A DNA stretch of 64,000 nt from an uncultured Verrucomicrobia subdivision 3 bacterium (GTDB taxonomy: Bacteria; Verrucomicrobiota; Verrucomicrobiia; Limisphaerales; UBA11358), in NCBI GenBank assembly GCA_903872345.1, contig CAIQKM010000157.1, positions 10,755 to 74,754 on the forward strand, in the 5' to 3' direction. Each line of letters starts with the position of its first letter. Position 1 is the stretch's first letter. The translations under genes were made by a program, and so were the position numbers. The notes under the pieces are model-generated. The model saw nothing but the letters and a program-made list of their open reading frames with translations, was not told the origin of the DNA and ran no database searches. Shown here piece after piece: positions 1,384-50,321 of this stretch.

Positions 1384-4300
1384 ATGAAACCAATCATCGC
1401 CCTAGGCATCGCCCTGGCATCCGCCCTGGCGGCGGAGGCGCAATACACGCCCGTCTCGCTCACTGCCGGCAGTTATAACAAGGACATCGTGGTCGAACAG
1501 AGCGCGCCGCATATTCCGGCGCAGCCGACGACAGCCTCGATGGATAACGGATCCGGAAACACGGGCTACGGCTGGTATGAGCGCGGCTTTGACCCCTCCG
1601 CGACTTCGACCGGGGTGCCGGCGGCGGGATCGACCTTTACGAGCGAATCATTTTCGGATCATTCGTACAAGATGGCGCCAAGTTACACGGCGAATAACGC
1701 AGTGTTGATTGATGCCACGGTGACGAGCGACACGGTGACGGTGAGTTCGCCGAGTTCGTTTTCGGCGTTGTCATTCCTGGTGTCTTCCGGCAACGGGTCG
1801 GTGACGGTCAATTACACGGTGCACCATGCCGATGCCACGACGGACACGGGCAGTTTCAACACGCAGGACTGGTTTTCCGGCGGCGGGCAGGCGGTGACGG
1901 CGAACGGGCGGCTGGATGTGCGGAGCCTGAGTCTGGCGAATGTGAACAGCGGGTTCCCCAAGATATACTCGGCGGACATCACGCTGACGCATACGGGCAG
2001 CCCGGTGACGGGCATTGACTTGAATTACAGCGGCGGGGGCGGGCACGCCTGCATTTTTGCGGTGAGCGGCTCGACCGGTTCGGGTTTTACGCCCATCACC
2101 ATCACGGGCTACAACGAGGACATGGTGGTGGAAAAAACACCGGCGTTGAACGGTTCCTACACCTCCGTCTCCATGGACGGCGGCACGGGGAACAACGGCA
2201 ACAGTTGGTATGAGGCGGGCTTTGACGGCCAGGCGCCGACTACCGGGCTGCCGGCGGCCGGTTCCACAATTGTGGATGCGTCCGCCTCGGATCATTCCTT
2301 CACCATGGCACCGACCTACGCGGCGAACAATGTGGCGTATCTGGACTCCACCCACGGCACGACGCTGGTGCTAAACTCGCCGGATTTCTTTTCGGGAATC
2401 TCCTTCCTCGGCAGCGCCGGGCACGGGCCGATCACGGTGGATTACTCGGTGAACCATGCGGACGGGACTTCGGAGACGGGCACTATCAGCGTGCCGGACT
2501 GGTTCAGCGGCGGGCTGGTGGCGTATGTTGCCAACGGCCGGGTGGATGTGGGCAGCGGCCAGTTTGCGAACGTGAACAGCGGGTATCCGCGACTGTTTGC
2601 AATGGACATTCCGGTGAACAATTCGGGCAGTCAGGTGACGAGCATCCAGTTGAGCTATGACAGCGGCAATACGAGCGGCGGCATTGCGGCGATTTTCGCG
2701 GTGAGCGGGGTGAGCGTGCCGACGGCGCCGACCGCGCCGTTCAATCTGGCGGTTTCCCCGGCGGCGCAGACGCAGTACTTGGGCGGGCAGGCTTACTTTC
2801 AAGTGGCGGCCAGCGGAACGTTGCCGTTGAGCTATCAGTGGAACAAGGGTGGCACGCCGATTGCCGGGGCTACGAACGCCACGCTGGCGCTGGCCGGGTT
2901 GGCGGCGGGGGACGCGGCGACTTATACGTGTACGGTGACCAATCTGGGCGGCGCGGTGACGAGCGGTAACGGGGTGCTGACGGTGTCAGCCCTGCCATCG
3001 GGAGCGCCGGGTCTGGTGCTGGGCGATCATCCGCTGGCTTACTACCGCTTGAATGAAGGGGCGGTGGTGCCGGAAACGGCGACGAACCTGGGCAGCCTGG
3101 GCACGAATGGCAATGGTTTTTATTATCCGGGCGGCATGCATCAGGTGCCCGGGGCGCTGGCGGGCGATCCCGACACGGCGGCGGGCTACACGGGCATTGA
3201 TGTGAGCTCTGAAGACGGGGCGGTGCCGACGATTGTGCCGTACACGCCGGCGATCAACCCGAATGGTTCGTTCACGGTGGAGGCGTGGCTGAATCCGGAG
3301 TTGCAGGGGAACCTGGGAAATGCGCAGGCACCGTTCAATAACCAGTTCAATGATGTGAACGGCAACCGGGTTGGCTGGGATTTCTTCCAGCGCGCGGCGG
3401 CCACCCAGACGCCGGATTCGCACGGTCCGGGATTCAGTTTCCGCATGTTTAACGGAACTTCGGGCAGTGAGGATCAGACCACGGTATTCAATCTGACGGG
3501 CGGCAATTACCAGCCGGGGCAATGGTGCCATCTGGTGGCGGTTTATGATGCCGCGGTGCCGTCGGCGACGCTATATTTGAACGGCGTGCAGGTGGCGCAG
3601 TCCACCAGTCCAAACGGCACCTATGTGGCCAACACCAATTCGCCTTTCGCCATCGGCGGCTATCCGGATGGTTCGCAGAATCCGTTCATCGGCGCGATTG
3701 ACGAGGTGGCGCTTTACAACGGCCCGCTTTCGGCCGACCAGGTGCTGGCCCACTATATGAACGGGACAAATGCGTCACGCGCTTCGTCCTATTCCTCCGT
3801 GGTGCTCGGGGATGGGGCGGTGGAATATCTGCGGCTGGATGAGCCGGAAAAGAATCCGGCGCCGAACCAGGGTGTGCTCGGCCCGGTGCTCAACGGAGCT
3901 TACTTTGGCACGCAAAACGGGGTGGCCGGTCCGCAGTCGCCCGCCTATCTGGGCTTTGCGGCCACCAATACGGCGGCGGCGTTCAATACAACGAACAGCT
4001 ATATTGAGCTGGAAAATCCGGCGGGCTTGAACTTCACCGGACCGATCACGCTGGAAGCCTGGGTGCAGCCGGCGGCGGTGCAGGGGGGCGAATCGTATGT
4101 GCTGGCGCATGGCGGCAATGACACGTGGTCCGGGGAAACGGTGTTGCGTTTGCAGGGCGGCTATTATCAGATCGGATCGGAATACGGCAATGCGAGTGCG
4201 GCCATACCGGCCGGAGATTTGGGCGGCGGCCAGTGGATTTACCTGGTCGGCACGTGGGACGGGGCGAACTGGAAACTGTACCGCAACTCGGTGCTGCTGG

Positions 4301-5622
4301 CGACCTCGGCGGACGCGACGGGGCCGGTGACGATTGCCAACGCGAACTGGGCGATCGGGGCGCGCGGCCGCTGGAAGCGCGAAACCGGTCTGGTGGATCC
4401 CGGCCAGGACACGCGTATTTTCAACGGCGCGATTGACGAGGTGGCGATTTACAATCAGGCGCTCTCCCAGGCCAGCATTCAGGCGCATTATTTCATGGGC
4501 AAATATGGCACCACCAACGCGCCCGCCACGGTGCTGGTGCAGCCGGTGCCGCAGACACGATACATCGGCGCCACGGCCACTTTTAGCGTGGTGGCCGGCG
4601 GAGCCACGCCGCTCTCGTACCAGTGGGTTAAAAACACCACCCCGATCACCGGGGCGACGAATTCGTCGCTGACGCTGACGAATGTGCATCCGGCGGACGC
4701 GGCCAATTACAGCGTGACGGTCAGCAATGTGATCGGTTCGACCAACAGCGCGGCGGCGGCGCTGACGGTCGTCTCCGGCTACGGCGCGGTGGTGTCCGGC
4801 GACCAGCCGGTGGCGTTTTATCCGCTGAACGAAACCAGCGGCACGGTGGCGTATGACGCCTTCTCCGGCACCTACAACGGCACTTATGAAAACGGCCCGA
4901 CGCTGGGAGTGGCCGGGGCCACGGTGAACACGGGCACGGCGGTGGCATTCAACGGTTCCAACCAGTCGGTGCTGCTGGGCAGTCCGGCGGGCTTGAACCT
5001 GACGGGCCAAATCACCTTCGAGGCCTGGATTTATCCGACGGCCACGAGCGGCGACCGCGATATTTTCGGCCGCGGTTACACGTTCAGCCCGTCCTGGGGC
5101 GAAATGGTGCTGCGGATTGAAAACGGCGTTTATGAGGTCGGCGTCTGGAATGGCAATAATTATCAGGCCACGGCCACGATGCCGACGGGCGATTTGAACA
5201 ACTGGGTTTACCTGGCGGGCACTTATGATGGCAGCCAGTGGAACCTGTACCGGAATGGTACACTTGTGGGCACCGGCGGGGCCGGAGTTGGACCGTTTAC
5301 GATCGGGGCGGATCTGGCGATTGGCGACGGCACGGCCAATGGCAACGGCCGCGCGTTCCAAGGCTCGATCCAGGATGCGGCGATCTACGGTTATGCGCTG
5401 CCGGCGAGCCGGATCAAGTCGCACTATCAGGCCGGGCTGTACTTCTCCACCAGCGTGCTGGCGATTGGCACGAGTGGCGGCAAACCGGCGCTCACGTGGC
5501 AGGCGGGCACGCTTCAGTCTTCCACCAATGTGATGGGACCGTATGTGGATCTGCCGAGCGCCACTTCGCCGTATGTGCCGGCGACCGGGGCGGCGCAACA
5601 GTTCTATCGCATTAAATATTGA
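1384..5622 (+). CDS. Giant secreted multi-domain protein: 2 unknown N-terminal repeats + 2 Ig-like + 3 LamG/ConA-like lectin domains + FYR-type C-terminal module
   Basis: Within ORF 1336..5622, the ATG at 1384 gives the signal peptide [20 protein letters not shown]. There are two tandem ~210 aa repeats (about 1444..2070 and 2086..2710). Two Ig-like modules carry LSYQW..G.P..GATN..L...Y. Three LamG-like modules each end in IDEVA[LI]YN..L....[IV].AHY or [20 protein letters not shown]. The tail is [10 protein letters not shown]. Confidence 0.85.
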
Positions 5623-5678: not shown

Positions 5679-5689
5679 GGCAAATAAAA

Positions 5690-6553: not shown

Positions 6554-6639
6554 GGAGCGGACCGTCACATGGTTTTTGGCATCTGGCCGGACCGGTTCCC
6601 GCAGGGAATGGTCCGGTGCAGGGAGAAAATTTTTACCTC

Positions 6640-8055: not shown

Positions 8056-8122
8056 CCGTCTCAAGTTATTTATTTAAACAAACCTCAAACGCTGAACTGC
8101 AAGCTTATCACCTGATATTAAA

Positions 8123-9931: not shown

Positions 9932-9937
9932 TCTCGC

Positions 9938-11914: not shown

Positions 11915-11918
11915 TTGT

Positions 11919-15412: not shown

Positions 15413-15430
15413 GCGGTCCCGGTGCGCCGG

Positions 15431-19164: not shown

Positions 19165-19168
19165 GGCT

Positions 19169-22060: not shown

Positions 22061-22134
22061 ATAAGTGGATTTGCGTCAGTTTAGAAAGTTGGCGGTTGCT
22101 GGCCAGTATAATCAAACGCGGAGAAAGCGCGCCT

Positions 22135-22152
22135 GCCCGAACGGGCGATTGT
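22135..22152 (+). promoter_or_regulatory. 18-nt box gcccgaacgggcgattgt, copy 1 (candidate operator/promoter element)
   Basis: An exact 18-mer also occurs at 23360..23377. This copy lies in the divergent intergenic region between the GH2-kinase-regulator operon and the pseudopilin-like gene at 22270. Confidence 0.35.
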
Positions 22153-22269
22153 CAGTCCGGGTGCGGGATATATGATGAGTTCAAATCTCCACCCCAACCG
22201 GTCAGCGCGCAAAAGCCATTGGCTGCAATGATCCGGCGCCGGGTGGAACTGTCGCATACGAATGTTTCT

Positions 22270-23550: not shown

Positions 23551-26500
23551 ATGAGTAATGTCATGATAAAATCCCCAACCTGGGCGGTGCTGGCCGCCGG
23601 TCTGCTGGCTGCCCACCTGGCTTCGGCCCAGACGGAGAGCTGGAATGGCAGCGTCAATCAAAACTGGTCCACGGCCGGCAACTGGTCGGCGGTCGCGGTG
23701 CCCGGTTCGGCCACGAACGTGCTGTTCACCAACAGCGTGGGCTCGGCGGCGGCGGCCGGCGCCATTGACAACATCGTCAACAGCGGCTTTGGCGGCACCA
23801 TCGGGGCTTTGCAATATGCGAACACCAATACGAGCAACGGCGCCGGCTTCTATCACACCACGCAAATCGGCGCCGGCCAGACGCTGACGCTGACGGGCGG
23901 GCTGATAGCCGGCTCCCTGACGGACCTGGGCGGGAATGCGGTGGTCAACGCGGCCATTACCGGGGCCGGGGGCAAGCTGGTGATGAGCAACACCAGCAGC
24001 AATCTGGTGGCGAACCAGGGCAGTGGCACCAGCGGCGCCCATACCGGGATATTAAATCTGACGAATCTGGACGTATTCACCGCCACCATTGGCCGGATCA
24101 TCGTTGGCAACGCCTCCCTCGGGGTGGCGCGCGCCGAAGGGGCACTGTATCTGGCGAAGACGAACTTCATCACGCTGTCCGGCTCCGCCCCGCAAATCTA
24201 TGCGGGTTACAACAACGGCAATAACAATGGCAACAATACGTTCAGCTATATTTTTCTGGGCCAGTCAAATGTCCTTGCGGTCAACTCCATCACGATTGGC
24301 GCGGACAAGAACGCGGCGGTGATGGCGTTTAATCCGGCGATTACCAACGGCAACCCGGTGGCCGTGTTCCGCGGCGGCGGCGGCGGCACGAGCCGGGTGT
24401 CGTCCTGGACTCTGGGCAACAACTCGGCGCAGACCAGCACCGGCAGCACGAGCGTGGGGACGAATGATTTTTCGAACGGCTACCTGGATGCCATGGTGGA
24501 TTCGATGATTCTCGGGGAAAGCGAATCCGGCGCGAGCTCCGGTTCCGGGAGCGGCACGGGCATCTTCACCTTCACGGCCGGGACCAATAATGTGAACACC
24601 CTTTACGTGGGCTATCGGGTCGCCACCGGCGGCAACTGCGCGGGCATCGGCGCCATGAATGTGAACGGCACGGGCACGCTGATTGCGAACAATGCCATCT
24701 GCCTTTCATATTGGAATGGCGGCTCGGCCAACGCCTATGCCACCGGCAACTTGAACATCAATGGCGGCACGGTGCTGGCCAATACGATTACGAACGGGGT
24801 CACGGTGAGCGGAGCCAACAACACGGCCAACATCACCATCAATGGCGGCACGCTGGGCCTCACGAGCATTCTGGGCACGGCGGGCACGCTGGCGTCGCCC
24901 CTGTTGAATTTCAGCGCGGCCAATGCGGCCCTGCAATTGCAGGTGTCCGGAATCCAGACGAACATCGAGGCGGTGACGTTTAGTCCGTCCGGCCTGACCA
25001 ATCTAATCAATATCAGCTATCTGCCGCCCATCACCAGTTATCCGGTCACTTATCCGCTGATCGGCTTTCAAAACCTGGGGGGGACGCTCAATGTGGGGGT
25101 CAGCAACCTGCCGGCGGCGACGCCGGCGTATCAGGGGTATGTAACAAATGACGCCAACACGGTTTACCTGGTGCTGACCAGCGGGCCGACGCTCGGTTCG
25201 CAGGTGGACAAATGGACCGGCGCGGCGGGCGGCAACTGGGATGCGGTGACGGTCAACTGGAGCGCCTCCGGTTCGCCGGTGACCTATGCGAACGGCGCGC
25301 CGGTGCAGTTTGACGACACCGCCACGGGCGCCACGAACATCAATCTCACCACCACCCTGCTGCCGGCCAGCATCACGGCCAGCAACAGCGTGCTGCCTTA
25401 TATCCTGACCGGCACCGGCAAGATTTCCGGCGGCGCGGGCCTGACGAAGTATGGCAGTGGCACGCTGACGGTGGCGAACGCCGGGAACAATGATTTTGTC
25501 GGGAACATCACCATCAATGCCGGCGCAATCCAGTTTGGCAATGGCAGCACCAACGGGAATTTGCCGGTGACGGGAACGATCACCGACAACGGGAACCTGA
25601 TTTTCAACCACAGTAATAATACGCTCGTGCCTAACACTGTTACCGGCGGCGGCACGCTGACGCAAAATGGCAATGACGTGGTGACGCTCACGGCCTCCAA
25701 CAGTTTTAACGGCCTGGCGGTGGTGAACACGGGGATGCTGCTGGTGAACGGGGTGCTGTCGGGCGCGCTGACGAATGCGGCGGGCGCAACGGTCGGCGGC
25801 AATGGCACCAACGCGGGGGCGGCCAGCATCAGTGGCGTCATCCAGCCAAGCGCCGCCAGCGGCATGCCGGCGACATTCACGCTGGGCGGACTCGATCTGC
25901 TGGCCGGGGCGACCCCCCGGTTCATCCTGAATGGCACGGATAGCACGATGGGCAACGGAGTTAATGACCTGCTGCAGGTCAATGGGGATCTGGCGGCCAA
26001 CAATAACGCGGTGGCGCTCAACTTCATCGGCACCCCGCAGACAGGCGTGCCTTACACGCTAATCAATTACACCGGCAACCTGACCGGCAGTTTCGCAACG
26101 GCGGCGACGGGCACGCATTTCACAACGGCGGTGGACCAATCAACGCCCAATGAGATCAATGTGACCCTGAGCGGTTCGGGCGCAAACTTGAAATGGGATT
26201 CCAGCGTCAGCGCCACCTGGGATACCGGCATCAGCAGCAACTGGCTGAACGGCAGTTCGCCCGATGTGTTTTATGCCGGGGACAACGTGCTGTTGGACGA
26301 CACCGCCGGGGTGGTGACGAATATTACCATTGGGTCCGGCGTGGTGGTTTATCCAAATGTCATTACCGTGAGTTCGGCGGTCAATGATTTCAGCATAGGC
26401 GGCGGCCAGATCGGCGGGGCGGCCAGCATTCAGAAGAGCGGGGCCAGCGTCCTGGCACTGAACTCGGCGAACACGTTTACCGGGGGCGCCAATGTCACGG

Positions 26501-27972
26501 GAGGCACAGTGAGACTCGGCGCAAATGGCGCTTTGGGTACGGGACTGAGCTACTTTACCAACGGAGCGACGCTGGATTTGAACCTGCATTCCGCCAGCGG
26601 TTCCGTGGTGGTTTCCGGCGCGGGCGTGGGCGGTCAGGGCGTGATTATTAACAGCGCGGCGAGCGCCAATGGCGACCAGAATGCCTTCGGCAGCGGGGTG
26701 ACGGTTTATTTGCAGGCGGATGCAAAATTTGGTTCGGTGAACCGCTGGGACATCCGCAACGGCAGTCTGGCAAGCAATGACGGCAATCCCTGGAACCTGA
26801 CGGTGGCGGGGACAAACATGATCGCGCTGGTGAATGCCACGGTGGATGATCGCTTGGGGAATATTGACATTCAGAGCGGCACTTTTGCCATCCAGACGTC
26901 AACCCTGACGGATAGCTCATCCTGGGCGGGCAATGCCAACCACGTCATTACCGTGGAAACCAACGCCACGTTGGAGGTGGATTTCACCGGGTTTGTGGCC
27001 TTGGGGCAGACGCTGGTGTTCAATGACGGCTCGACCTTGCAAAATGACGGTTCCGCGTGCGTGCTGAACGGGCCGGTGACGTTGGCGGGCGGGAATGTGA
27101 ATGTTTTCAACACGGCGGCCACGACGGTCGAGCTGGATGGCGTGATCAGCGGTCCGGGTGGTTTCACCAAGAACAGCGCGGCTTCCATGACCTTGACGGC
27201 GGCGGACACGTACACGGGCGGCACTGCGGTCAATGCGGGCACGCTGTTTCTGACGGGTTCCGGGGCGATCACAGGCAGCACCAACATCACCATTGCCGCC
27301 GGGGCGACGGTGGATGTTTCGGCGCTGGCCACCCCGGCGATGACGCTGGGCGCGGGCCAGACTTTGCGCGGCAACGGGCTGTTGAACGGCAGCCTGGTCG
27401 TGGGGACGGGAGCAACGGTTGCGCCCGGCACCAATGCCGGTTCCATCGGTCTGCTCACGGTCACAAACAGTGTGACGCTGGGCGGCACAACCGTGATGAA
27501 GCTCAGTCATTTGCCCCTGACCAATGACGTGATCAGCGCGGCCAGCGTCACTTTCGGTGGCACGTTGAATCTGGTGGGCCTGACCGCCTTGCAGGCGGGT
27601 GACAGCTTCCAACTGTTCCCGGCGGGCGCCAGTTATTCGGGCGCGTTTGCCGCGATCGTTCCGGCCACGCCCGGTGCCGGCCTGCTCTGGAACACGAACA
27701 GTCTGGCCACCGGGATGTTGAGCGTGGTCAGCGGCGTGGTGCCGCAGCCGCACATCACCGGCATCAGCCTGACGGGCACCAGCCTGGTCATTAATGGCAC
27801 CAACGGGCTGGCGGGTGAATCCTACAATGTATTGACGACCACCAACCTGGCGCTGCCACTGGCAAACTGGACGGTGCTGCCGACCAACACGTTTACCGCC
27901 GGGAACTTCAGTCTTACCAACACGGTGAATCCCGGCGCGGCGCAAAGTTTCTACATTCTGCGCGTACCGTAA
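23551..27972 (+). CDS. Giant secreted autotransporter-associated beta-strand repeat (PATR) protein, no beta-barrel translocator, FYR-type C-terminal module
   Basis: The ATG at 23551 gives MSNVMIKSPTWAVLAAGLLAAHLASAQ. PATR units recur, for example LTKYGSGTLTVANAGNNDFVGNITINAGAIQFG, IQKSGASVLALNSANTFTGGANVTGGTVRLG and FTKNSAASMTLTAADTYTGGTAVNAGTLFLTG. The composition is G/T/N/A-rich and beta-helix-like. The tail is NPGAAQSFYILRVP. Confidence 0.9.
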   Translation: MSNVMIKSPTWAVLAAGLLAAHLASAQTESWNGSVNQNWSTAGNWSAVAVPGSATNVLFTNSVGSAAAAGAIDNIVNSGFGGTIGALQYANTNTSNGAGFYHTTQIGAGQTLTLTGGLIAGSLTDLGGNAVVNAAITGAGGKLVMSNTSSNLVANQGSGTSGAHTGILNLTNLDVFTATIGRIIVGNASLGVARAEGALYLAKTNFITLSGSAPQIYAGYNNGNNNGNNTFSYIFLGQSNVLAVNSITIGADKNAAVMAFNPAITNGNPVAVFRGGGGGTSRVSSWTLGNNSAQTSTGSTSVGTNDFSNGYLDAMVDSMILGESESGASSGSGSGTGIFTFTAGTNNVNTLYVGYRVATGGNCAGIGAMNVNGTGTLIANNAICLSYWNGGSANAYATGNLNINGGTVLANTITNGVTVSGANNTANITINGGTLGLTSILGTAGTLASPLLNFSAANAALQLQVSGIQTNIEAVTFSPSGLTNLINISYLPPITSYPVTYPLIGFQNLGGTLNVGVSNLPAATPAYQGYVTNDANTVYLVLTSGPTLGSQVDKWTGAAGGNWDAVTVNWSASGSPVTYANGAPVQFDDTATGATNINLTTTLLPASITASNSVLPYILTGTGKISGGAGLTKYGSGTLTVANAGNNDFVGNITINAGAIQFGNGSTNGNLPVTGTITDNGNLIFNHSNNTLVPNTVTGGGTLTQNGNDVVTLTASNSFNGLAVVNTGMLLVNGVLSGALTNAAGATVGGNGTNAGAASISGVIQPSAASGMPATFTLGGLDLLAGATPRFILNGTDSTMGNGVNDLLQVNGDLAANNNAVALNFIGTPQTGVPYTLINYTGNLTGSFATAATGTHFTTAVDQSTPNEINVTLSGSGANLKWDSSVSATWDTGISSNWLNGSSPDVFYAGDNVLLDDTAGVVTNITIGSGVVVYPNVITVSSAVNDFSIGGGQIGGAASIQKSGASVLALNSANTFTGGANVTGGTVRLGANGALGTGLSYFTNGATLDLNLHSASGSVVVSGAGVGGQGVIINSAASANGDQNAFGSGVTVYLQADAKFGSVNRWDIRNGSLASNDGNPWNLTVAGTNMIALVNATVDDRLGNIDIQSGTFAIQTSTLTDSSSWAGNANHVITVETNATLEVDFTGFVALGQTLVFNDGSTLQNDGSACVLNGPVTLAGGNVNVFNTAATTVELDGVISGPGGFTKNSAASMTLTAADTYTGGTAVNAGTLFLTGSGAITGSTNITIAAGATVDVSALATPAMTLGAGQTLRGNGLLNGSLVVGTGATVAPGTNAGSIGLLTVTNSVTLGGTTVMKLSHLPLTNDVISAASVTFGGTLNLVGLTALQAGDSFQLFPAGASYSGAFAAIVPATPGAGLLWNTNSLATGMLSVVSGVVPQPHITGISLTGTSLVINGTNGLAGESYNVLTTTNLALPLANWTVLPTNTFTAGNFSLTNTVNPGAAQSFYILRVP

Positions 27973-28146: not shown

Positions 28147-30849
28147 ATGAAAAAATTATTCATCAAAACGGGTATCACGGCCATGCTGGCGCTGTTCGCC
28201 GGCCTGGGCCTCAATGTCTGTCAGGCAACGATGACGGTGCAAAGTCTGAATGGCGCCGTAACGGCCACGGAAATCAGTTCGTTCGAGAGTTTCATGGCCG
28301 GCGAGGCGCCGCCGACCACCAACACCTACGACAACTCGCTGGCGGATGGCACCGCCGGGATGGAGGTGGAGTCATTGGGCATGATGTACGAGGTCACCAA
28401 TGACCCGGTGCTGCTGAACCAGATGATCCAGTATGCCGACCAGTTTCTGGCTTTGCGCAACGATACGAACACGGGGCGCGTGATGTGGACGGGCAACCGC
28501 GAGCCGGTCTGGCTGACCAAGCCAGCGGGAACGGAGGCGGGTTATGCGGGGTGTGAAAACAACGACATTGTCGGTCACATCGCCTATTGCGCCAAACTCA
28601 TTTTGGAAACGCCGGCGGTCTGGAATACCACGGTTCCGGACGGTAATCCGTTTGGCTATGGGACGACCTATTATGACCGCGCGGAAACCTATCTCACGCA
28701 GATGGAGGTGACGGAAAACAATTACATGCTGAAATGGTTCATCAATCCGACGAACAGCCAGATCATTGCGCCCACCAATGCCGCCTGGACCGCCTTTGGC
28801 GAGAGTGTCAACGCCTGGAACCGGCAGATGATGTTCATGAACGGCTTCCAGCGGATTTCGGAATGTCATCAACTGCTGGGCGACAACCCGGCCAAGGTGG
28901 CGCAATACGATGCGATTGTGCAGGCGGCGATGAACTGGTTTGTGAGCGGACTGACGCCCTATACGACGAACGGGTATCCGGTGTATAACTGGGATTATGC
29001 GCCCGGGAGCGGCGGCAGCGAGGATCTGAGCCTGCATGCGGATTATGACATGTGGGGCGTGAACCGCGCCTATCTGAGCGGCCGTTATACGAACTTGCCG
29101 GCGTCCACCATGATTCCGTTTGCGAACACGCTCCAGTATGTGATTTATCAGGGCAACAACACCTTTGCCGACTGGGTCTCGGGCGATGCCTCCAGCACCC
29201 GCAACTATATTTATCCGGCGTGGACCCTGGTCGGGAATTTCAATCCCAAGACCTATTACACCACTTCGAGCGCCAACATTGCGCACGGATCGCAGGGCAA
29301 CACGGCCATATATGACGCGTTCATTCTCTGGGTCAAAAATGCCCGCTACCTGGGCTCGTTTGCGAACAACACGAATTCGGCGGACTACACGGTGCTCGCG
29401 CCGTGGCAGCAGGTTCTTTATGCCGGGAGCAGCACCAATTGCAAAGTAACGGTGAGTCCTTTGGATGGGTTCAGCAGCAGCGTGACGTTGGGGACGGGCG
29501 GGCTGCCTTCAGGCGTGACGGCGAGCTTCAGCCCGGCGTCCGTTAGCGGCGGTTCGGGCACTTCCACGCTGACCCTGTCCGCATCCGGTTCGACGGCGAG
29601 CGGCATTTATTCGCTCGGTTCCGTGACCATCACCGGCAGCGGCGGTTCGATAGCGCGCACGTCGCCGCTGACGCTGATCGTGCCGGCGACGCCCGGTTTC
29701 TCGATTTCGGCCGCGCCCGCCTCGCAAAACATCACGATTGGCGGCAGCACCAGTTATACGGTGACGGTGGGCAGCCTCAATGGATTTGGCGGCACGGTGG
29801 CGTTGAGCGTGAGCGGATTGCCCGCACATGCCGGCGGCAGTTTTAGTCCCGCCTCCATCACGGGCGGTGCCGGTTCCTCCACCCTGAATATCACCACGGC
29901 CACGAATACGCCGAACGGCACTTCCACCCTGACCATTACCGGCGTCAGCGGCACCCTGACCAACACGGCCACGGTGAGCCTGGTGCTCAATGATTTCACC
30001 ATCTCCGCCGCGCCCGCCGCGCAGACGGTCACCGCCGGCGGCGGCACGAATTTCACCGTGACGGTGGGCAACATCAATGGCTTCGCCGGCACGGTCAATC
30101 TGAGCGCGGGCGGATTGCCGGCCGGGGCGACGGCCAGTTTTAATCCGACTTCGATCACGAGTTTGGGCAACTCGACCCTGACGATCACGACCACCAATAC
30201 GATGGCCGCCAGCACCAATGCGCTCACCATCACCGGGATCAGCGGCACGCTCCAGCATAGTGCCGGGGTGAGTTTGGTCATCAATGCGGCGGTTCCCAGC
30301 CTGCCGTCCGGGTGGTCGGATTCGGATATTGGTGCGGTCGGGTTGGCGGGCGGCGCTTCATACAGCAGCGGCGTGTTTACCGTTCAGGGGAGCGGGGCGG
30401 ATATTTATGGAACGAACGATGAATTCAACTTCTGCCGGGAACTGGCGACGAATAATTTCACCGTCACCGCCCGGGTGGCCAGCCAGAGCAGCGCGAATGC
30501 GTGGTCCAAATCCGGCGTGATGATTCGCGGGGTGAACACCACCAATTCAGCTTACATCGGGGTCTATATCACGCCCGGCAACGGCGTGGACATGCAATGC
30601 CGCACAGTCAACGGGGCGGCGGCCGTGGACATGGCCCGGGTGGGCGGCGTAGCGGCACCGTATTGGGTGCGGCTGGTGCGTTCCGGGAGCACGTTCACCG
30701 GGTATTGCTCGCCGGACGGGAGCACGTGGACGACGGTCAGTTCCACGAACATCTCCATGGCCGCGAGCGTGCGCGTGGGACTGCCGGTGTGTTCCCATGA
30801 CAATACGCAGCTCAACACCTCCACCTTTGACAATGTGACGGTTCAATAG
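28147..30849 (+). CDS. Secreted protein: unknown ~420 aa N-terminal domain + 3 Ig-like repeats + C-terminal ConA-like (DUF1349-like) domain
   Basis: Signal peptide MKKLFIKTGITAMLALFAGLGLNVCQA. The N-terminal domain is paralogous to 30933..32726. Three ~95 aa repeats (29419..30284) follow the pattern V.V..LNGF.G.V.L...GLP.G....F.P.S.T. The C-terminal 150 aa (SGWSDSDIGAVGLAGGASYSSGVFTVQGSGADIYG...WSKSGVMIR...YWVRLVRSGSTFTGYCSPDGSTW) resembles the ConA-like domain common at the ends of bacterial glycosidases. Confidence 0.85.
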   Translation: MKKLFIKTGITAMLALFAGLGLNVCQATMTVQSLNGAVTATEISSFESFMAGEAPPTTNTYDNSLADGTAGMEVESLGMMYEVTNDPVLLNQMIQYADQFLALRNDTNTGRVMWTGNREPVWLTKPAGTEAGYAGCENNDIVGHIAYCAKLILETPAVWNTTVPDGNPFGYGTTYYDRAETYLTQMEVTENNYMLKWFINPTNSQIIAPTNAAWTAFGESVNAWNRQMMFMNGFQRISECHQLLGDNPAKVAQYDAIVQAAMNWFVSGLTPYTTNGYPVYNWDYAPGSGGSEDLSLHADYDMWGVNRAYLSGRYTNLPASTMIPFANTLQYVIYQGNNTFADWVSGDASSTRNYIYPAWTLVGNFNPKTYYTTSSANIAHGSQGNTAIYDAFILWVKNARYLGSFANNTNSADYTVLAPWQQVLYAGSSTNCKVTVSPLDGFSSSVTLGTGGLPSGVTASFSPASVSGGSGTSTLTLSASGSTASGIYSLGSVTITGSGGSIARTSPLTLIVPATPGFSISAAPASQNITIGGSTSYTVTVGSLNGFGGTVALSVSGLPAHAGGSFSPASITGGAGSSTLNITTATNTPNGTSTLTITGVSGTLTNTATVSLVLNDFTISAAPAAQTVTAGGGTNFTVTVGNINGFAGTVNLSAGGLPAGATASFNPTSITSLGNSTLTITTTNTMAASTNALTITGISGTLQHSAGVSLVINAAVPSLPSGWSDSDIGAVGLAGGASYSSGVFTVQGSGADIYGTNDEFNFCRELATNNFTVTARVASQSSANAWSKSGVMIRGVNTTNSAYIGVYITPGNGVDMQCRTVNGAAAVDMARVGGVAAPYWVRLVRSGSTFTGYCSPDGSTWTTVSSTNISMAASVRVGLPVCSHDNTQLNTSTFDNVTVQ

Positions 30850-30932: not shown

Positions 30933-32726
30933 ATGCCTGTAATGAGAATTTTTTTGCGTTTAACCGGTGGCTGCCTGCTATTTGGGTTGCTGCTGGCAAC
31001 CGGGCGGGCGGGCATGACCTTGCAAAGCCTTTACGGCGCGGTGACGGCTACGGAAACGGCTTCCTTTAAAACTTTCATGGCCGGGGAAACGCCGCCGGCG
31101 GGCCAGACCTATGACAACACCATCGCCGATGGCACCGCCGGGATGGAGGCGGAGGCGCTGGGGCTGATGTACGAGGTCACAAATGATTCCGCCGGTCTGA
31201 GCCAGATGATCCAGTATGCCGACCGCTTTTTGGCTTTGCGCAATGACACCAACACGGGCACGGTCATGTGGGACGGCAAGCGCGAGCCGGTCTGGCTCAC
31301 CAAGCCGCCGACCAACAGCGACGGCAGCGTGAACAGTCAGGCCGGCTATGCCGGGTGCGAGAATAATGGCATTGTCGGGCACATCGCCTATTGTGCGAAA
31401 CTGATTTTGGAAAGTCCCTGGCTTTGGAATGCCACCGTTCCCGGCGGCGATCCTTACACCAACGGGCCGACGTATATTCAACGGGCGGAGACGTACATCA
31501 CCCAGATGGACCGGGTGCAGGATGCCTACATGCTGAAATGGTTTATCAATACGAATAACTATCAGATTACTGCGCCGACCAATGCGGCGTGGACGGCGGA
31601 GGGGCAAAGTGTGACGGCTTACAACCGGCAGATGATGTTTCTCAACGGATTCCAGCGGCTGTCCGAGTGTCATCAACTGCTGGGGGACAGTCCGACGCGG
31701 GTGGCCGAATATGATGCCATTGTAATAGCCGTGATGAACGGTTTTATCGCCTCGCTGCAGCCGTACGCGACGAACGGCGTTTCGGTTTACAACTGGACGT
31801 ACGCGCCGGGCAGCGGCGGGAGCGAGGATAATACGCTGCATTCCACGTATGACCTGTGGGGCGTTACGCGGGCCTGGGCCAGCGGACGTTATGGCCTGGG
31901 CCATGCCGCGCTGGTTCCGTTTGCGAATACGCTCCAGTACGTGATGAATGTCGCGACCAACCACATCTCCTACTACGTCAACGGCACCAGCAGTCCGAAC
32001 AGCGCGCGCAATTTCATCTATCCGGGCTGGCTGCCGGTGGCGAATTTCGGAGCGTCCACCTATGCCATCATGGCAAATATGAACATTGCGCAAGGTTCGC
32101 CGGCCAGCACGGCCATTTTTGACGCCTTAAATCTCTGGGTGAAAAACGCCCGGTTCACGGGCGTTTACCCGACCAATAATACGTCGCCGGACTTCACGGT
32201 TTCAACGCCGTGGGGGCAGACGGTTTATGCGGGCGGAAGCGTTACCGGCATGGTGACCTTGAATGGGTTGAACGGCTTTGCGGGAACGGTCACGCTGGGA
32301 GCGGGTCATTTGCCGGCGGGTGTGACGGCCGGTTTTAATCCGGCGGTCATCACCAACGGGACGGGCGCATCCGTGCTTACGCTCACGGCGGCCACATCGG
32401 CGGCGGGCGGGATTTTTGCACTGACCAACGGCGTGACAATTTTGGGAACCAATGGCGTGGGCGTCCGCAGCGCGCCCGTTGCCCTGGCGGTCATCCCGCC
32501 GCCGGCCATCCGCAAGGCGCTGCGGAACGGAACGAATTACACCTTCACCGGCACCAACGGGATTCCGGGGCGGACTTGCGTGGTGCTGATGTCCACGAAT
32601 CCGGCGCTGCCCCGGACCGGCTGGACGCCGCTCGCGACGAACACCTTTGACGTCACCGGCAAATTTCTGTTCACCAACTCCGCCGGGTCGGGTTTGCGCC
32701 AGTTTTACCGGCTGCAAGCGCCGTGA
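30933..32726 (+). CDS. Secreted protein: paralog of the unknown N-terminal domain of 28147..30849 + 1 Ig-like repeat + FYR-type C-terminal module
   Basis: ATG 30933 (or 30942) gives MPVMRIFLRLTGGCLLFGLLLATGRAG. Long collinear identity with 28147..30849 includes GAVTATE..SF..FMAGE.PP...TYDN..ADGTAGME.E.LG.MYEVTND, MIQYAD.FLALRNDTNTG.VMW.G.REPVWLTKP, AGYAGCENN.IVGHIAYCAKLILE and RQMMF.NGFQR.SECHQLLGD. The tail is GLRQFYRLQAP. Confidence 0.85.
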   Translation: MPVMRIFLRLTGGCLLFGLLLATGRAGMTLQSLYGAVTATETASFKTFMAGETPPAGQTYDNTIADGTAGMEAEALGLMYEVTNDSAGLSQMIQYADRFLALRNDTNTGTVMWDGKREPVWLTKPPTNSDGSVNSQAGYAGCENNGIVGHIAYCAKLILESPWLWNATVPGGDPYTNGPTYIQRAETYITQMDRVQDAYMLKWFINTNNYQITAPTNAAWTAEGQSVTAYNRQMMFLNGFQRLSECHQLLGDSPTRVAEYDAIVIAVMNGFIASLQPYATNGVSVYNWTYAPGSGGSEDNTLHSTYDLWGVTRAWASGRYGLGHAALVPFANTLQYVMNVATNHISYYVNGTSSPNSARNFIYPGWLPVANFGASTYAIMANMNIAQGSPASTAIFDALNLWVKNARFTGVYPTNNTSPDFTVSTPWGQTVYAGGSVTGMVTLNGLNGFAGTVTLGAGHLPAGVTAGFNPAVITNGTGASVLTLTAATSAAGGIFALTNGVTILGTNGVGVRSAPVALAVIPPPAIRKALRNGTNYTFTGTNGIPGRTCVVLMSTNPALPRTGWTPLATNTFDVTGKFLFTNSAGSGLRQFYRLQAP

Positions 32727-38826: not shown

Positions 38827-40785
38827 ATGAAATTACTACTCGCAAACTGGCCGCTGCAACCCCGTCGCGCCGCCACCCTCCTGATCCTTGGCGCGGCCCT
38901 GTGGCACCCGGCGTCCGCTTGGGCGAACACCGCCGAAACCCAAATGGTCGGCGATGCCACCGGCACGTCGTCGCTGATTGGCACCACGAACTGGACGCCG
39001 GCAACCACCGTGGCTCCCACGAACCTCCTGGCCGCCACGTATGATTATGCGACCACCACGACATTGCGCACGCCGGCAGCCACCAACAGCTACACGCTTT
39101 ATGCCAATTCGCTGACGCTCAACACCGGCGGCGCTCTGGGATTCAAGGGCAGCAATGTGGTGACGATTCCCAATCTTATTCTCAATGGCGGGAGCATTCA
39201 GCAATCCGGCACCGCCGGGATTCCGGACATTGCGCGGCTGGCCGGGAGCATCAATCTCACGGCCAGTTCCACGATCAAACTGGGGGCCGGGGCCGGCACC
39301 AATGCCTTGGACATCATGGCGGTGATCACGAATTCGTCCGCTGTCAGCGCCAATCTGACGGTGAATACCGCCGGCATGCTGATCCTGTCCGCGCCAAACA
39401 CCTTCAACGGCAATATCAGCGTGGCCAATAACACCACCACCAATGTCGTGTTGCAATTGGGCATCAACAACGCCCTGCCGGCCACGGCCGGGTTGACGCT
39501 GAACGGCGGCTCCTCCGGCTATGGCCCGATGCTGGATTTGAACGGCTACAGCACCACCATCAGCAATCTGACGTTTTCGTCCGGGGCCGTTCCCGGCATC
39601 GTGACCAATACCGCACCGGGCACCACGTCCACGTTGGCCCTGGGCTACAACAATGCGAACGAAACGCTGACGACCGGGGTCATCGCGGATAATCCGGCAA
39701 CGGCCGGAACCATTTCGCTGACGAAAGTGGGCAATGGGACGTTGACCCTGGGCTTTGCCTATCCGTACAGCGGCGATACCACGGTCAGTGCAGGCACGCT
39801 CAAAATGGGGGCGAGCAGTGTATTGCCCAATGGCGCGGGCAAAGGCAACCTGACCGTCAACGGCACGCTGGACATGGCCGGCCGCGGCGAGACCGTCAAC
39901 GGATTCTCGGGCACCGGCACGGTGGATAATTCCGGCGGCCTGGTGGGCACGGATTATACTTTGAATGTGGGCAACAATGATGCCTCCAGCACGTTTGGCG
40001 GCGTGATTCAAAACACGCTGGGCGCCGGCAACACCGCCCTGGGTAAACGGGGTCTTGGCACCCTGACGTTGACGGGGAACAGCACCTATACCGGCGCCAC
40101 CACCATTCTGGGCGGGACGCTGGCGGTGAATGGCACGCTGGCGGAGAGCGCCGTGACGGTCTCGGTGAACGGCACGCTGGCCGGCAGCGGCATTCTGGGC
40201 AGCAATGTCACCGTCAATGGCACCATCGCCCCGGGCTCAACCAATCTGATTGGCGGATTGACCTGCTCCAACGGTGTCACCCTGGCCGGCACAACCTGGT
40301 TAAAACTGAACCGCACCGGTTCGCCGGCCAAGGCGGATTCCATTGCCGCCGCCACCCTGACGCTGGGGGGCACGCTGACGGTGACCAACATCGGCGGCAC
40401 CTTGCAGGCCGGCGACACGTTTACCGTCTTCAATTCGCCGGGCTTGAGCGGCATGTTCAGTGTCACCAATCTGCCGCCGCTGGCGAGCGGGCTGGCCTGG
40501 GATGACACCACGACCGTGGATGGCAAATTGACCGTAGTTTCCACGGGCCCTCTGCCGCAGCCGGTCATCAACAGCGTGAGTCTGTCCGGTTCAAGTTTGA
40601 TTTTCAGCGGTACCAATGGAACCGCCGGGCAGTCTTACACCGTGCTGAGTAGCACCAATCTGACGGTGGCGTTGACCAACTGGATTCCGGTGGTGACCAA
40701 TACGTTTGGGGCCGGGAGCTTCAGCATTACCAACACGGTGGTTCCGGGAGCGCCGCAGAAATTTTATATTATGCGCATTCCTTGA
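38827..40785 (+). CDS. Secreted PATR beta-strand repeat protein with FYR-type C-terminal module
   Basis: The ATG at 38827 gives MKLLLANWPLQPRRAATLLILGAALWHPASAWA. PATR units include LTKVGNGTLTLGFAYPYSGDTTVSAGTLKMG and LGKRGLGTLTLTGNSTYTGATTILGGTLAVNG. The tail is VPGAPQKFYIMRIP. Confidence 0.88.
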   Translation: MKLLLANWPLQPRRAATLLILGAALWHPASAWANTAETQMVGDATGTSSLIGTTNWTPATTVAPTNLLAATYDYATTTTLRTPAATNSYTLYANSLTLNTGGALGFKGSNVVTIPNLILNGGSIQQSGTAGIPDIARLAGSINLTASSTIKLGAGAGTNALDIMAVITNSSAVSANLTVNTAGMLILSAPNTFNGNISVANNTTTNVVLQLGINNALPATAGLTLNGGSSGYGPMLDLNGYSTTISNLTFSSGAVPGIVTNTAPGTTSTLALGYNNANETLTTGVIADNPATAGTISLTKVGNGTLTLGFAYPYSGDTTVSAGTLKMGASSVLPNGAGKGNLTVNGTLDMAGRGETVNGFSGTGTVDNSGGLVGTDYTLNVGNNDASSTFGGVIQNTLGAGNTALGKRGLGTLTLTGNSTYTGATTILGGTLAVNGTLAESAVTVSVNGTLAGSGILGSNVTVNGTIAPGSTNLIGGLTCSNGVTLAGTTWLKLNRTGSPAKADSIAAATLTLGGTLTVTNIGGTLQAGDTFTVFNSPGLSGMFSVTNLPPLASGLAWDDTTTVDGKLTVVSTGPLPQPVINSVSLSGSSLIFSGTNGTAGQSYTVLSSTNLTVALTNWIPVVTNTFGAGSFSITNTVVPGAPQKFYIMRIP

Positions 40786-40896: not shown

Positions 40897-43800
40897 ATGA
40901 ATTATTCGGCCCAGCGAGCCCTGCGCCAGTGGCGGTTGAATGTCCTGGTGCTGGCGCTCGGGGCCGGCCTGCCGGGCGGATCCGTGCGGGCGGACGACTT
41001 TAATTCGCGGGCGGCGGCATTTTTGAATTACTACGACACCGCCACCCCCAATCTGCCCCAGACCGGCAGCGGCCCGCATCGGATTGGGCGCACCGGTTTC
41101 TGGGCGGCGGAAGGCCGGTTTTTGAACAACGATATTTCCAACGGTTCCAATTTTCTGGCACAGGCCCTCGGCGATGCCGATTCCGAGGGTTCCGACGCCG
41201 GTTTTTCCATGTGGCCCGCGATGGACTGTTATTTGCGGTGGAGCAGTCTCGCGACCGTATTTACGCCGGCGGTGAGCAATCTGTTTCAGACCCAGCTCGT
41301 CGCCAACGGCACGAACTACGGCAGCGGGGCGACTTCGAACCAGCGGATGATGCTGGCGACCGCGCATTATTTGGCCGGGATGGTTTGGGGAACCAATGCA
41401 TTTCCCGCCGGCGCGCCATTTTCGGCGGATTATGGCACGGGAGATCCGAGCGGGCTGGCCTATGTGTCCAATACCATTGTGAACATTCCGTTTTACGGCC
41501 TGCCGGAGCATGATTCGCTGATCTATGAGCAGTTTACACTGGGTCCGATGTACACCCTGGAACAGTTTGCCCCGGACACGGTGCTGCGCCAACAGGCGCG
41601 CGTGGCGTTTGACTGGGCCGTGGCGGAAATGGCCGGATATTATTTTTACGACAACTGGGCAATTGCCTCGGATCGGACGGAACCCTTCTGGGTGCCCAAC
41701 CAGCCGACCCCGACGACAATGATGACCTACCTGTTCTTCGGCGGTCCGGTTCCCGGCACGCTGCTGGAAGCCTATCCCTCGGCACTTTACTGCCTGCCCA
41801 ATTTTCCCGGGGTGCCGCCGGAGGTGGTCATGGCCGCCACCAACCGGACGCAGCCCTACACGCATTACAGCACCGCCATGCGCAACACGGGCGGTTACAA
41901 CAACGCCTATTTCAAAACCGCCTATGTCACGCCCGGTTACGCGGTTTACAGCCAGGCCGAGTGCGGAGTGCAGACGAATGGTGATGGCAGTTATTCCATC
42001 ACCAATTACGGCACGGTCAGCTTGAGCGATCCGCATCAGATGCAGCGCTGGGGCGTGGTTTGGAATGCGCCGGGGGACCAGACCAAGTTCTGGATCACCA
42101 ATCCCTACAACCCGGTATATTCCGGCTCCGCACCCAATACTTACATCGGCACCACCATTGCGGAGCAGACCGTGCAATTGGGCGGCACGGTGGCGGCGGT
42201 TTATAACATTCCGACCAACGCGACCAAGCCGGACTGGAATCATAACGGCGTGGCGATGACGAACTATCAGGTGCTCGAAGGCCAGATCCCGACGAATTAC
42301 TCCGCTGTGATTGACAACGCCGCCGCCGGCGGGCGCGTCTATCTGCATTACACGAATGTCCTGATCGCCTTGTATGTGAGTACGAACTTTACCTGGCAGG
42401 CGGACACCAACGGGACGAATTATTTTCTGATTCCCGCCAACGTTGCCGGGTTGGCGGTGGAGACGGCTGCGCCGGCGGAATATCCGCAGACCACCGCCGC
42501 CTTGCGGTTGGCGGCCTTCCGTAACGATGTGCTGACGCTGGGCGGCGTGAACACCAATTACCTGGCCGGCCCCAACCCGGCGATGATTTACACGGACCGG
42601 CATGGGAATACGCTCCAGATAACCTTCGGGCAGGGCGGCCGGACCAACGGTCGAAGCATTGATTACCAGCAATGGCCGGCCATTGGCAATCCATGGATGA
42701 GCCAGGCGCAATTGGGGAATCTATTTATTTTTGGCACCAACCGGACCCTGATTTATAATTTCAACACTTGGACGGAAGCCACCAACAACCAGCCGGTTTT
42801 GTTGACGAATGCTTCCGTGGCGCTGGCGCAAAACAATGCCGGGACCATTGACCTGGCGGCGCGGGTCAGCGATGCGGAAACCCCGGCCGGCAATCTGCTG
42901 TTCGGGGTCAGCAATCCGTTCAACGGTTCGGTTGCATTGATGGCGGACGGGCATACGGCAAGCTTCACGCCGGCGACGAATTATTCCGGCGCGGCCGGAT
43001 TCAGTTTTACCGCCACCGATGAGGGCACCGATCCTCGCCTGGTGCTCTGCTATAATTTTGCCCCGCCAGGCACACTAACGAGCAACGTGGTCGCCGATGT
43101 TTCCGGCAATGCCCGGTCCGCCCGTCTGGTGACCGTGGGCACGGGCACAGCCGCCTATTCGCCGTCCGTTCCGGCGGCCCTGGCGCCATTCAGCACGCAG
43201 TCGCTGCGGCTCACCCAGTCGGCGAATGGGGCCAATGCCGTGGCGCTGAGTCGGACGATTACCACGGGAAACCTGAGCCTGACGAATGGCAGTTGGACGC
43301 TGGCCGCCTGGTTCCAACGCGCCACGCTGACGAATGATCAGTTCCTTTTTTATGCCGGCAGCGGCGACGGTTTTGGCGGCGCTGGCGATGAATTGCAATT
43401 GTATTGTCCGGCGAACACGAATTCCGTTGCGCTGTCGCATTGGAACACCGGCAACGTCCAGGACCTGGCCCTGGTTTCCGCCGGCACGGCGGGCACGAAC
43501 CAATGGCACCACGTCGCGCTGGTCTGCCAGCACGGGACCAATGGGGCAAACAATGTGAGCCTTTATCTGGATGGATCACCGGCCGGCACGGCCGGCAATA
43601 TTATGTGGTCGCTCAAGCAGAATTATCCGCTGGTCTTTGGCGGACATGCTTCGACCGCGTCCAAGACGTACCGCTGGTTCAATGGTTCGCTTGCTGATCT
43701 GGCGCTGTTCCGCGGCGCCTTGAGCGCGACGGAAATCGCGCAACTGGCCACACGGACGGTGAGCCATTTCGGCGGCTGGACGATCACCAATGCGGTGACG

Positions 43801-44310
43801 GTCAACGTCAGCGCGCCCCCGGTATTGGCCATGATTTCCAACCGCACTGTTGGCGCCGGGGTGACCATGGTCATCACCAATGCGGCCACGGTTTCACCGC
43901 CGCAAACCCTTGCCTTCGGATTGGCGACGGCGCCCGCCAATGCGGTCGTGGACGCCAACACGGGGGTGCTGATGTGGCGGCCGGCGGTGGCGCAGGCGGG
44001 GTCGACCAACCCCTTCAGCGTCACCGTCACCGGCGGAGGTTCGCCCAGTCTGAGCGCGACCCAGAATTTCACGGTGACAGTCGCCAAACTTAATCCGGCC
44101 CGATTGTCCGGGTCGGTGCTGGCCAACCAGCGGCTCAGTTTTCAGGTGAGCGGTGATTCCGGACCTGATTATACGGTCCAAGCTTCCACGAATCTGGCGG
44201 CCTGGAACAATCTTTTCACTACCAATTCACCCGCGCTGCCGTTTAACTGGACGAATGCCGCCGTGCCGGGTGTTTCGCAGCGGTTTTATCGTCTGTTGCT
44301 TGGGCCCTGA
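40897..44310 (+). CDS. Large secreted protein: unknown ~640 aa N-terminal domain + cadherin/Ig-like + LamG + Ig-like + FYR-type C-terminal module
   Basis: The ATG at 40897 gives MNYSAQRALRQWRLNVLVLALGAGLPGGSVRA. The Ig/cadherin-like block is VSDAETPAGNLLFGVSNPFNGSVALMADGHTASFTPATNYSGAAGFSFTATDEG. The LamG block is WHHVALV...LYLDGSPAG...FNGSLADLALFRGALSATEIAQL. A putative Ig domain follows (PPQTLAFGLATAPANAVVDANTGVLMWRP). The tail is GVSQRFYRLLLGP. Confidence 0.85.
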   Translation: MNYSAQRALRQWRLNVLVLALGAGLPGGSVRADDFNSRAAAFLNYYDTATPNLPQTGSGPHRIGRTGFWAAEGRFLNNDISNGSNFLAQALGDADSEGSDAGFSMWPAMDCYLRWSSLATVFTPAVSNLFQTQLVANGTNYGSGATSNQRMMLATAHYLAGMVWGTNAFPAGAPFSADYGTGDPSGLAYVSNTIVNIPFYGLPEHDSLIYEQFTLGPMYTLEQFAPDTVLRQQARVAFDWAVAEMAGYYFYDNWAIASDRTEPFWVPNQPTPTTMMTYLFFGGPVPGTLLEAYPSALYCLPNFPGVPPEVVMAATNRTQPYTHYSTAMRNTGGYNNAYFKTAYVTPGYAVYSQAECGVQTNGDGSYSITNYGTVSLSDPHQMQRWGVVWNAPGDQTKFWITNPYNPVYSGSAPNTYIGTTIAEQTVQLGGTVAAVYNIPTNATKPDWNHNGVAMTNYQVLEGQIPTNYSAVIDNAAAGGRVYLHYTNVLIALYVSTNFTWQADTNGTNYFLIPANVAGLAVETAAPAEYPQTTAALRLAAFRNDVLTLGGVNTNYLAGPNPAMIYTDRHGNTLQITFGQGGRTNGRSIDYQQWPAIGNPWMSQAQLGNLFIFGTNRTLIYNFNTWTEATNNQPVLLTNASVALAQNNAGTIDLAARVSDAETPAGNLLFGVSNPFNGSVALMADGHTASFTPATNYSGAAGFSFTATDEGTDPRLVLCYNFAPPGTLTSNVVADVSGNARSARLVTVGTGTAAYSPSVPAALAPFSTQSLRLTQSANGANAVALSRTITTGNLSLTNGSWTLAAWFQRATLTNDQFLFYAGSGDGFGGAGDELQLYCPANTNSVALSHWNTGNVQDLALVSAGTAGTNQWHHVALVCQHGTNGANNVSLYLDGSPAGTAGNIMWSLKQNYPLVFGGHASTASKTYRWFNGSLADLALFRGALSATEIAQLATRTVSHFGGWTITNAVTVNVSAPPVLAMISNRTVGAGVTMVITNAATVSPPQTLAFGLATAPANAVVDANTGVLMWRPAVAQAGSTNPFSVTVTGGGSPSLSATQNFTVTVAKLNPARLSGSVLANQRLSFQVSGDSGPDYTVQASTNLAAWNNLFTTNSPALPFNWTNAAVPGVSQRFYRLLLGP

Positions 44311-50013: not shown

Positions 50014-50321
50014 CATGACGTTCCCGGTCAGACACCCCTGATTTCTTCCTGCCGATCCGGCAATTATCCCACGGTTTTCCCCTCCCCGTTTCCGGGCATT
50101 TATTGCAATTCCTGCACTCGGAAATCCTGCAACCATGGCGGGTTTCCTGATCAGCCTGCCCATCACTCATCTGGGTAACACCCGTGTGGGTAATAGATTG
50201 CCGCAAAACTTATGATAGGCTTTTTGACCAAGGAGTCAGTCGCCCAATCACGGAGACTGACCTGCCCATGACTCAATCACCCGGAATCAAAACCATTATT
50301 GCTGGAGACTCAACTGTCATT

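Follow-up and report, generated by a model that had tools for sequence, protein, structure and literature searches.

Several described systems place a dedicated module at the C-terminus of exported proteins. The closest to the case reported here is the C-terminal domain (CTD) of the type IX secretion system (T9SS; PF18962/TIGR04183, and TIGR04131 for type B), an immunoglobulin (Ig)-like beta-sandwich of about 80 residues with which proteins exported by Sec terminate, which is carried by unrelated enzyme and adhesin cargoes and recurs in many paralogous carriers per genome; the T9SS is not known outside the Bacteroidota/FCB group. PEP-CTERM, the tag associated with exosortase, is found on many exported Verrucomicrobiota proteins and consists of a short motif, a transmembrane helix and a basic cluster. 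SLH domains, cell-wall-binding repeats, dockerins and the PPC domain (PF04151), the last a small C-terminal beta-sandwich, are terminal modules which occur singly or in tandem on unrelated exported proteins. Here we describe a C-terminal module of about 77 residues common to four proteins encoded in a 64-kb stretch of DNA (contig CAIQKM010000157.1, positions 10,755 to 74,754, G+C content 61%, hereafter the window) from an uncultured Verrucomicrobia subdivision 3 bacterium, together with a divergent subtype of it in a fifth protein and a shortened, weakly supported version in a sixth.

The module resembles the T9SS CTD in all the respects listed above for cargo, carriers and position, and it agrees as well with the description of an Ig-like beta-sandwich of about 70-100 residues at the extreme C-terminus of signal-peptide proteins, the fold being a predicted one. 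It differs from the T9SS CTD in that its host belongs to the Verrucomicrobiota and that it also forms tandem arrays and, rarely, N-terminal copies. Moreover, PF18962, TIGR04183 and TIGR04131 all missed the module, as did every other model of the Pfam-A and NCBIfam libraries, which include T9SS CTD, PEP-CTERM, fn3 and PPC entries: no match was obtained for the six window tails at E<=10, nor for 30 diverse tails at E<=1. A profile search of the PDB sequences returned chance-level matches only and no description of the module was found in the literature searched; a first-pass annotation of the window, which had proposed a candidate undescribed domain, is supported on this point. As for the other systems, PEP-CTERM models of NCBIfam and Pfam gave no match to the tails and the module is a soluble folded domain rather than a motif with a helix; its carriers lack the barrel (PF03797) of classical (type Va) autotransporters; the PPC profile does not match the tails; and SLH domains, cell-wall-binding repeats and dockerins bear no sequence relationship to it, the folds of dockerin and SLH being different from a beta-sandwich and the likeness a functional analogy only. 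The fibronectin type III (FN3) domain provides the nearest solved folds, but the fn3 model (PF00041) missed all 30 tails, the module is shorter (about 72-78 residues per repeat) and FN3 domains follow no terminal rule. Judged by sequence, the module thus lies outside the T9SS CTD, PEP-CTERM, autotransporter, fn3, PPC and discoidin families. What is new is an uncatalogued family of predicted C-terminal beta-sandwiches, while C-terminal beta-sandwich modules on exported proteins are already known as such.

The terminal module in the window proteins

The six tails, which belong to the proteins here called A to F, were present exactly as the first-pass annotation had quoted them. The pattern FY[RI][LIM] occurs six times in the 95,048 residues of the stop-to-stop open reading frames (ORFs) of at least 40 amino acids in the six frames of the window, and all six occurrences fall within the last 8 residues of A to F; internal positions of the window ORFs contain none. 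Hidden Markov models (HMMs) were built in a leave-one-out manner from five tails each and recovered B (1e-23), D (3e-23), C (2e-12) and E (6e-9), leaving A and F unrecovered. An external-only HMM, based on 224 domain copies taken exclusively from proteins outside the window, was then run against the six-frame translation of the window and matched the same four tails with E-values from 1.5e-27 to 3.8e-16; it found nothing further below E 0.1 and again missed A and F. The modules and the genes that carry them, together with a paralog devoid of the module, are as follows.

27736..27969, + strand: terminal module of B (gene 23551..27972, PATR body; external-only HMM E 6e-27)
40549..40782, + strand: terminal module of D (gene 38827..40785, PATR body; external-only HMM E 1.5e-27)
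32490..32723, + strand: terminal module of C (gene 30933..32726; external-only HMM E 2.5e-22)
44077..44307, + strand: terminal module of E (gene 40897..44310; external-only HMM E 3.8e-16)
54160..54405, + strand: terminal module of F, divergent subtype (ORF 51895..54408, PATR body)
50184..51944, + strand: N-terminal part of F (signal peptide, PATR), in a frame different from that of 51895..54408
5440..5619, + strand: module of A, shortened and with weak support (gene 1384..5622; body of Ig and LamG domains)
28147..30849, + strand: G, a paralog of C without the module, ending in a ConA-like DUF1349 domain (residues 765-899)

In B, the envelope of the external-only HMM match reaches the last residue of the protein, and the D tail is 57% identical to that of B. 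The E tail belongs to a subtype ending in ...RFYRLLLGP, which was found in many database fragments, on a body made of Big_9/cadherin-like and LamG domains. Full-protein BLASTP comparisons showed the tail to be the sole significant similarity within the pairs B-C, C-D and D-E; in the case of C, whose body has no Pfam match, it is the only similarity to either B or D. The bodies of the six proteins had been described as otherwise different, and this applies to the three pairs above. It does not apply to B, D and F, because all three share PATR bodies, the BLASTP alignment of D with F extending to the C-termini of both proteins. The tails represent copies of a single, self-contained type of domain, some 75-80 residues long.

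The tail of F follows the pattern ...L-x-L-x-WPADHLGWILQAQTN...PTVFYRLRHP, found in at least 15 database fragments, and profile-profile comparison of this subtype with the main family by hhalign returned a probability of 91.6% with an E-value of 8e-7, which identifies F at sequence level as a divergent subtype. A is at best a weakly assignable, shortened member: when aligned to the F subtype it matches at the invariant W, LQ, TN and FYR positions, its FYRI lying 2 residues before the stop, with a hhalign probability of 40-51%; the protein gave no BLASTP match to B-F, and its tail no database relatives in a word-index search. The proposal that all six proteins share the module is therefore borne out for B, C, D and E by the HMMs and for F by hhalign and by the alignment with D that extends to both C-termini, whereas for A it can only weakly be demonstrated. 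The F gene itself had been given as a single unit, 50322..54408, and this had to be revised, as its length, 4087, cannot be divided by 3. The two ORFs listed above differ in frame, the change from one to the other falling at a run of nine C (51917-51925); the run could stem from faulty assembly, mark a pseudogene or be a tract prone to slippage within the gene of a surface protein.

The failure of both the leave-one-out and the external-only HMMs to recover A might suggest that unrelated C-termini resemble one another by chance or composition. This explanation is extremely improbable in view of E-values down to 1e-27 obtained with a model containing no window sequences, the confinement of the motif to six C-termini of the window and the thousands of relatives in the databases. 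For B, C, D, E and F, chance resemblance is refuted.

The module is exchangeable between the paralogs C and G. These proteins are 59% identical over 526 residues, and beyond the common part C has the module while G has two further Ig-like repeats followed by DUF1349, the ConA-like domain which the first-pass annotation had recognized in the place of the module.

Distribution, position and predicted fold of the family

A profile search of 1.84 billion cluster representatives returned 28,853 sequences at E<=1e-3 and 6,168 at E<=1e-10; these counts are upper estimates, inflated because only about 77 of the 124 profile positions correspond to the module while some 45 columns describe what precedes it in PATR proteins. 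The family comes mainly from Verrucomicrobiota subdivision 3 (Limisphaerales/Pedosphaera) of soil and freshwater. When species-representative genomes were scanned for a B-type pattern, 79 loci were obtained, nearly all of them labelled Verrucomicrobiia, Verrucomicrobiae, Limisphaerales, Pedosphaera or Verrucomicrobia subdivision 3, a taxonomic picture that holds for the B-type subtype because the pattern was drawn from B-type tails. F-type tails were present in the same outside loci and were likewise terminal. More than one carrier was encoded in 25 of the 79 loci, and six in the 64-kb window. Several metagenome-assembled genomes (MAGs) with typical module genes (L034, L037, L038, L042, L050, L061, L011, L016, L035, L056 and L064) have odd taxonomic labels, namely Bifidobacteriaceae, Sulfotelmatobacter, Limnocylindrales, Pseudomonadales or Acidoferrum, and are probably mislabelled or contaminated bins.

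The position of the module was evaluated on the best 148 representatives, scored with a module-only HMM and taken as terminal when the match ended no more than 8 residues from the C-terminus. The last copy was terminal in 147 of the 148, comprising all 112 single-copy proteins and 35 of the 36 that contain tandem arrays of 2-8 copies. Similarly, in the 79 loci the module ended within 8 residues of the stop in 103 of the 105 module ORFs with a confirmed stop codon, while uniform placement would give about 1%, since the median ORF is 945 residues long; both statistics rest on related sequences, and the first on the best-scoring representatives (about 150), so they are not independent samples. 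The restriction to the extreme C-terminus that the first-pass annotation had suggested testing was thus almost complete in both sets. The two genomic exceptions are adjacent genes of a Verrucomicrobiae MAG (L074:757-5634 and L074:5836-8937), in which the module directly follows the signal peptide and the C-termini are LamG-like or propeller-like. Even the distance to the stop is tight: the final beta-strand (F-Y-R/I/L-x) nearly always ends 3-6 residues before it, exactly five residues follow the aromatic pair in 71% of 350 tails, of which 69% finish with P and 22% with Q. Since the sequences are related and this preference is absent from the tandem-array proteins, it may be a trait of a subfamily.

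This placement bears on two explanations. According to the first, the beta-sandwich would be an export tag, recognized by an outer-membrane translocation or attachment machine and perhaps removed later, as a functional analogue of the T9SS CTD in a phylum in which no T9SS is known. The spacing to the stop, the final P or Q in 91% of tails and the agreement with T9SS CTDs in length, type of fold, placement at the very C-terminus, carriers with signal peptides and a cargo of both enzymes and adhesins are all in keeping with such a tag, but arrays of up to 8 copies and the N-terminal copies of L074 would not be expected of a C-terminal signal, and the T9SS CTD models gave no sequence match. We consider an export tag unlikely. 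The second explanation takes the module as an ordinary accessory domain, a divergent FN3/Ig-like or carbohydrate-binding-module (CBM)-like unit that stabilizes or caps the protein or binds external glycans. Here the terminal placement would merely reflect how such modular genes evolve. Against this, passive spacers and CBMs do not keep to the final 8 residues in some 98-99% of their proteins.

The carriers are both adhesin-like and glycan-degrading proteins with Sec signal peptides. Signal-peptide-like N-termini were present in all of A-F; in the 79 loci a crude heuristic assigned them to 57 of 81 ORFs with the module, compared with 69 of 296 controls. Among 42 full-length representatives the bodies contained PATR (26 proteins), LamG, Ig, PKD, He_PIG, fn3 and cadherin domains, as well as melibiase, GH9, PL8, RicinB and NPCBM, and the source annotations name the carriers by these other domains. 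The module is as frequent on adhesin-like PATR giants as on enzymes, which speaks against an accessory domain. In agreement with the earlier description, the six window tails (such as ...FYILRVP and ...FYRLLLGP) have no transmembrane helix, Arg/Lys cluster or basic tail, and no autotransporter barrel was found in the window carriers, in which PATR repeats were detected. The absence of a barrel leaves the route of the PATR giants across the outer membrane unexplained, a circumstance in favour of an export tag.

In order to evaluate the fold, AlphaFold2 models were calculated. The B tail, modelled from an 81-sequence alignment, came out as an all-beta domain with a pLDDT of 91.6 and strands at residues 12-19, 22-28, 35-41, 63-69 and 78-82, while the F subtype gave a pLDDT of 79.3 with the same strand order. 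Foldseek searches of the PDB with both models returned generic FN3/Ig domains, e.g., Tencon, neogenin, DCC and EMMPRIN, as weak matches with a best E-value of 0.015 and TM-scores of 0.4-0.63; the FN3 domains of Tencon, neogenin and DCC were the nearest solved folds, with TM-scores of 0.5-0.63. The module is thus confidently predicted to be a beta-sandwich, as the first-pass annotation had put forward, and its fold is putatively FN3/Ig-like. No T9SS CTD was present among the top 50 PDB matches of either model, which is a further point against an export tag, whereas the generic FN3/Ig neighbours favour an accessory domain.

At sequence level the relationship to FN3 is less direct. The F/A subtype displays an FN3-like B-strand, L-x-L-x-W-P, but a hhalign comparison with a small FN3 profile of four reference sequences, one of them taken from P0104, was not significant. 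For this reason we dropped the idea, raised by an alignment with Tencon made by eye, that FYRL represents the FN3 F-strand with the G-strand missing. In the tandem-type proteins Pfam fn3 does recognize canonical FN3 domains, which are distinct from the module arrays and lie upstream of them, and its failure on the module itself in the same proteins, shared by the CBM models, speaks against an accessory domain.

Proteins of this tandem type, including P0103, P0105, P0109, P0128 and others, consist largely of 3-8 module copies with a period of about 72-78 residues, often preceded by canonical FN3, Big_9 or DUF11 domains, and could act as scaffolds or high-avidity binders. Inside their module copies, galactose-binding models of the F5/8-type-C and NedA-like kinds gave partial matches that remained below threshold, lying, where mapped, around the Y-x-V-x-x-S-T-N/D-L-x-x-W hairpin. 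No full-length match to PF00754 or PF22633 occurred: pieces of 25-40 residues sum to about 28-33 bits with no single stretch passing, and the window tails have no partial matches to either model. Both the tandem repeats, typical of structural or avidity modules, and the galactose-binding matches in them are consistent with an accessory domain, as is the location of the window carriers in a glycan-degradation locus (see below). Overall, an accessory domain is a possible but rather doubtful identity for the module.

A putative docking or retention role

By analogy with the terminal modules described above, a sorting or anchoring role, as first proposed for the window tails, is plausible for the module. 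The reading that we tentatively prefer, while giving it somewhat less than an even chance, is that the module is a non-covalent surface docking or retention device. The carrier would be exported by Sec and the folded module would then hold it at the cell surface without a covalent bond, in a mode resembling that of SLH, cell-wall-binding or dockerin modules and unlike that of a cleaved membrane-helix signal, so that the functional part of the protein would project outward. The binding partner might be a component of the envelope or other copies of the module itself; in the latter case, the tandem-copy proteins could serve as scaffolds or high-avidity anchors.

The terminal position favours anchoring, docking or sorting over a passive spacer, as modules with these functions share terminal placement and passive spacers lack it. 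The size of the family, the exported carriers with their diverse bodies, the exchange between C and G, the predicted fold and the presence of several carriers per locus also count in favour of docking or retention. Between docking and an export tag, binding or anchoring accounts better for tandem arrays and for the occasional N-terminal copy than does a signal that has to be read at a free C-terminus. The export tag nevertheless stays under consideration, since the spacing to the stop is fixed and the barrel-less PATR giants have no other outer-membrane route. We regard as improbable the broader proposal that an undescribed outer-membrane secretion or attachment system of Verrucomicrobiota uses the module as its cargo tag or anchor, a system functionally parallel to that of the T9SS CTD but evolutionarily separate; if true, it would account for the arrival and retention of glycan-degrading enzymes and of PATR giants without a barrel at the surface.

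Several observations weigh against docking or retention. The conserved residues of the module look like core residues, with no obvious binding site, and extracellular enzymes commonly contain FN3-like domains as passive spacers. Neither the window nor the 79 loci revealed a partner gene, a result which also suits an accessory domain, and no candidate machine for an export tag emerged among the neighbours in those loci. Clustering of the neighbouring ORFs in the 79 loci revealed no conserved neighbour, the clusters being mostly alternative-frame artefacts of repeat genes, and only 24 of the 79 outside loci had a gene for a prepilin-type (N_methyl) protein at most 6 kb away from a module gene. 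In addition, genomes that carry the module also have PEP-CTERM tails, which belong to an established sorting system, the family counts are inflated and the terminal statistics draw on related, best-scoring sequences, as stated above.

Whatever its role, the module, for which no curated model exists, marks thousands of exported giant adhesin-like proteins and glycoside hydrolases in subdivision-3 Verrucomicrobia, which are abundant polysaccharide degraders of soil, peat and freshwater. A curated model would define a candidate surface proteome in such genomes and would improve their annotation, because the carriers are now named by their other domains. It would also provide a handle for finding a partner or a machine, making the question of how the giant proteins are displayed a testable one; if the domain is passive, the gain is limited to annotation.

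Genomic surroundings and associated genes

The window is a glycan-degradation locus, with dense glycan-utilization stretches at 6433-22060 and 46048-48417 which encode GH125, GH29, a SASA esterase, GH20, GH2 and two GH92; the window as a whole contains two SASA esterases as well as MFS and HlyD genes. The regulatory and prepilin-type genes of the window are listed below.

16126-19242, - strand: Reg_prop/Y_Y_Y hybrid sensor kinase
37181-37903: LuxR-type response regulator
5543-6553: prepilin-type (N_methyl) gene, after A
22096-23193: prepilin-type (N_methyl) gene, before B
38021-38773: prepilin-type (N_methyl) gene, before D/E
54501-55304: prepilin-type (N_methyl) gene, after F

Each of the four N_methyl genes adjoins a tail-bearing gene. 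The N_methyl proteins were considered as partners of the module and were not retained, given their frequency in the outside loci reported above.

Module genes have immediate neighbours encoding small PEP-CTERM proteins (VPEPST..., helix, RRRK) at L006:6677-7219, L009:6298-7242(-), L040:6454-7452 and L077:6398-7006(-), from which it follows that the two kinds of C-terminal tail coexist. The PEP-CTERM proteins of the sampled loci measure about 150-330 residues (stop-to-stop ORFs) as compared with a median of 945 for the module carriers.

Two observations concern the paralogs C and G. Their common N-terminal region of about 420 residues (28147-29500 and 30933-32300 in the window), which in C has no Pfam or NCBIfam match, is an uncharacterized domain, possibly enzymatic. 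Finally, an internal Ig-like repeat of G (residues 573-614, 29865-29990) matches NF058595, annotated as a "lipo-invert putative C-terminal anchoring domain", with an E-value of 4e-4 and a score of 20.8 bits, which is below the cutoff of 37.

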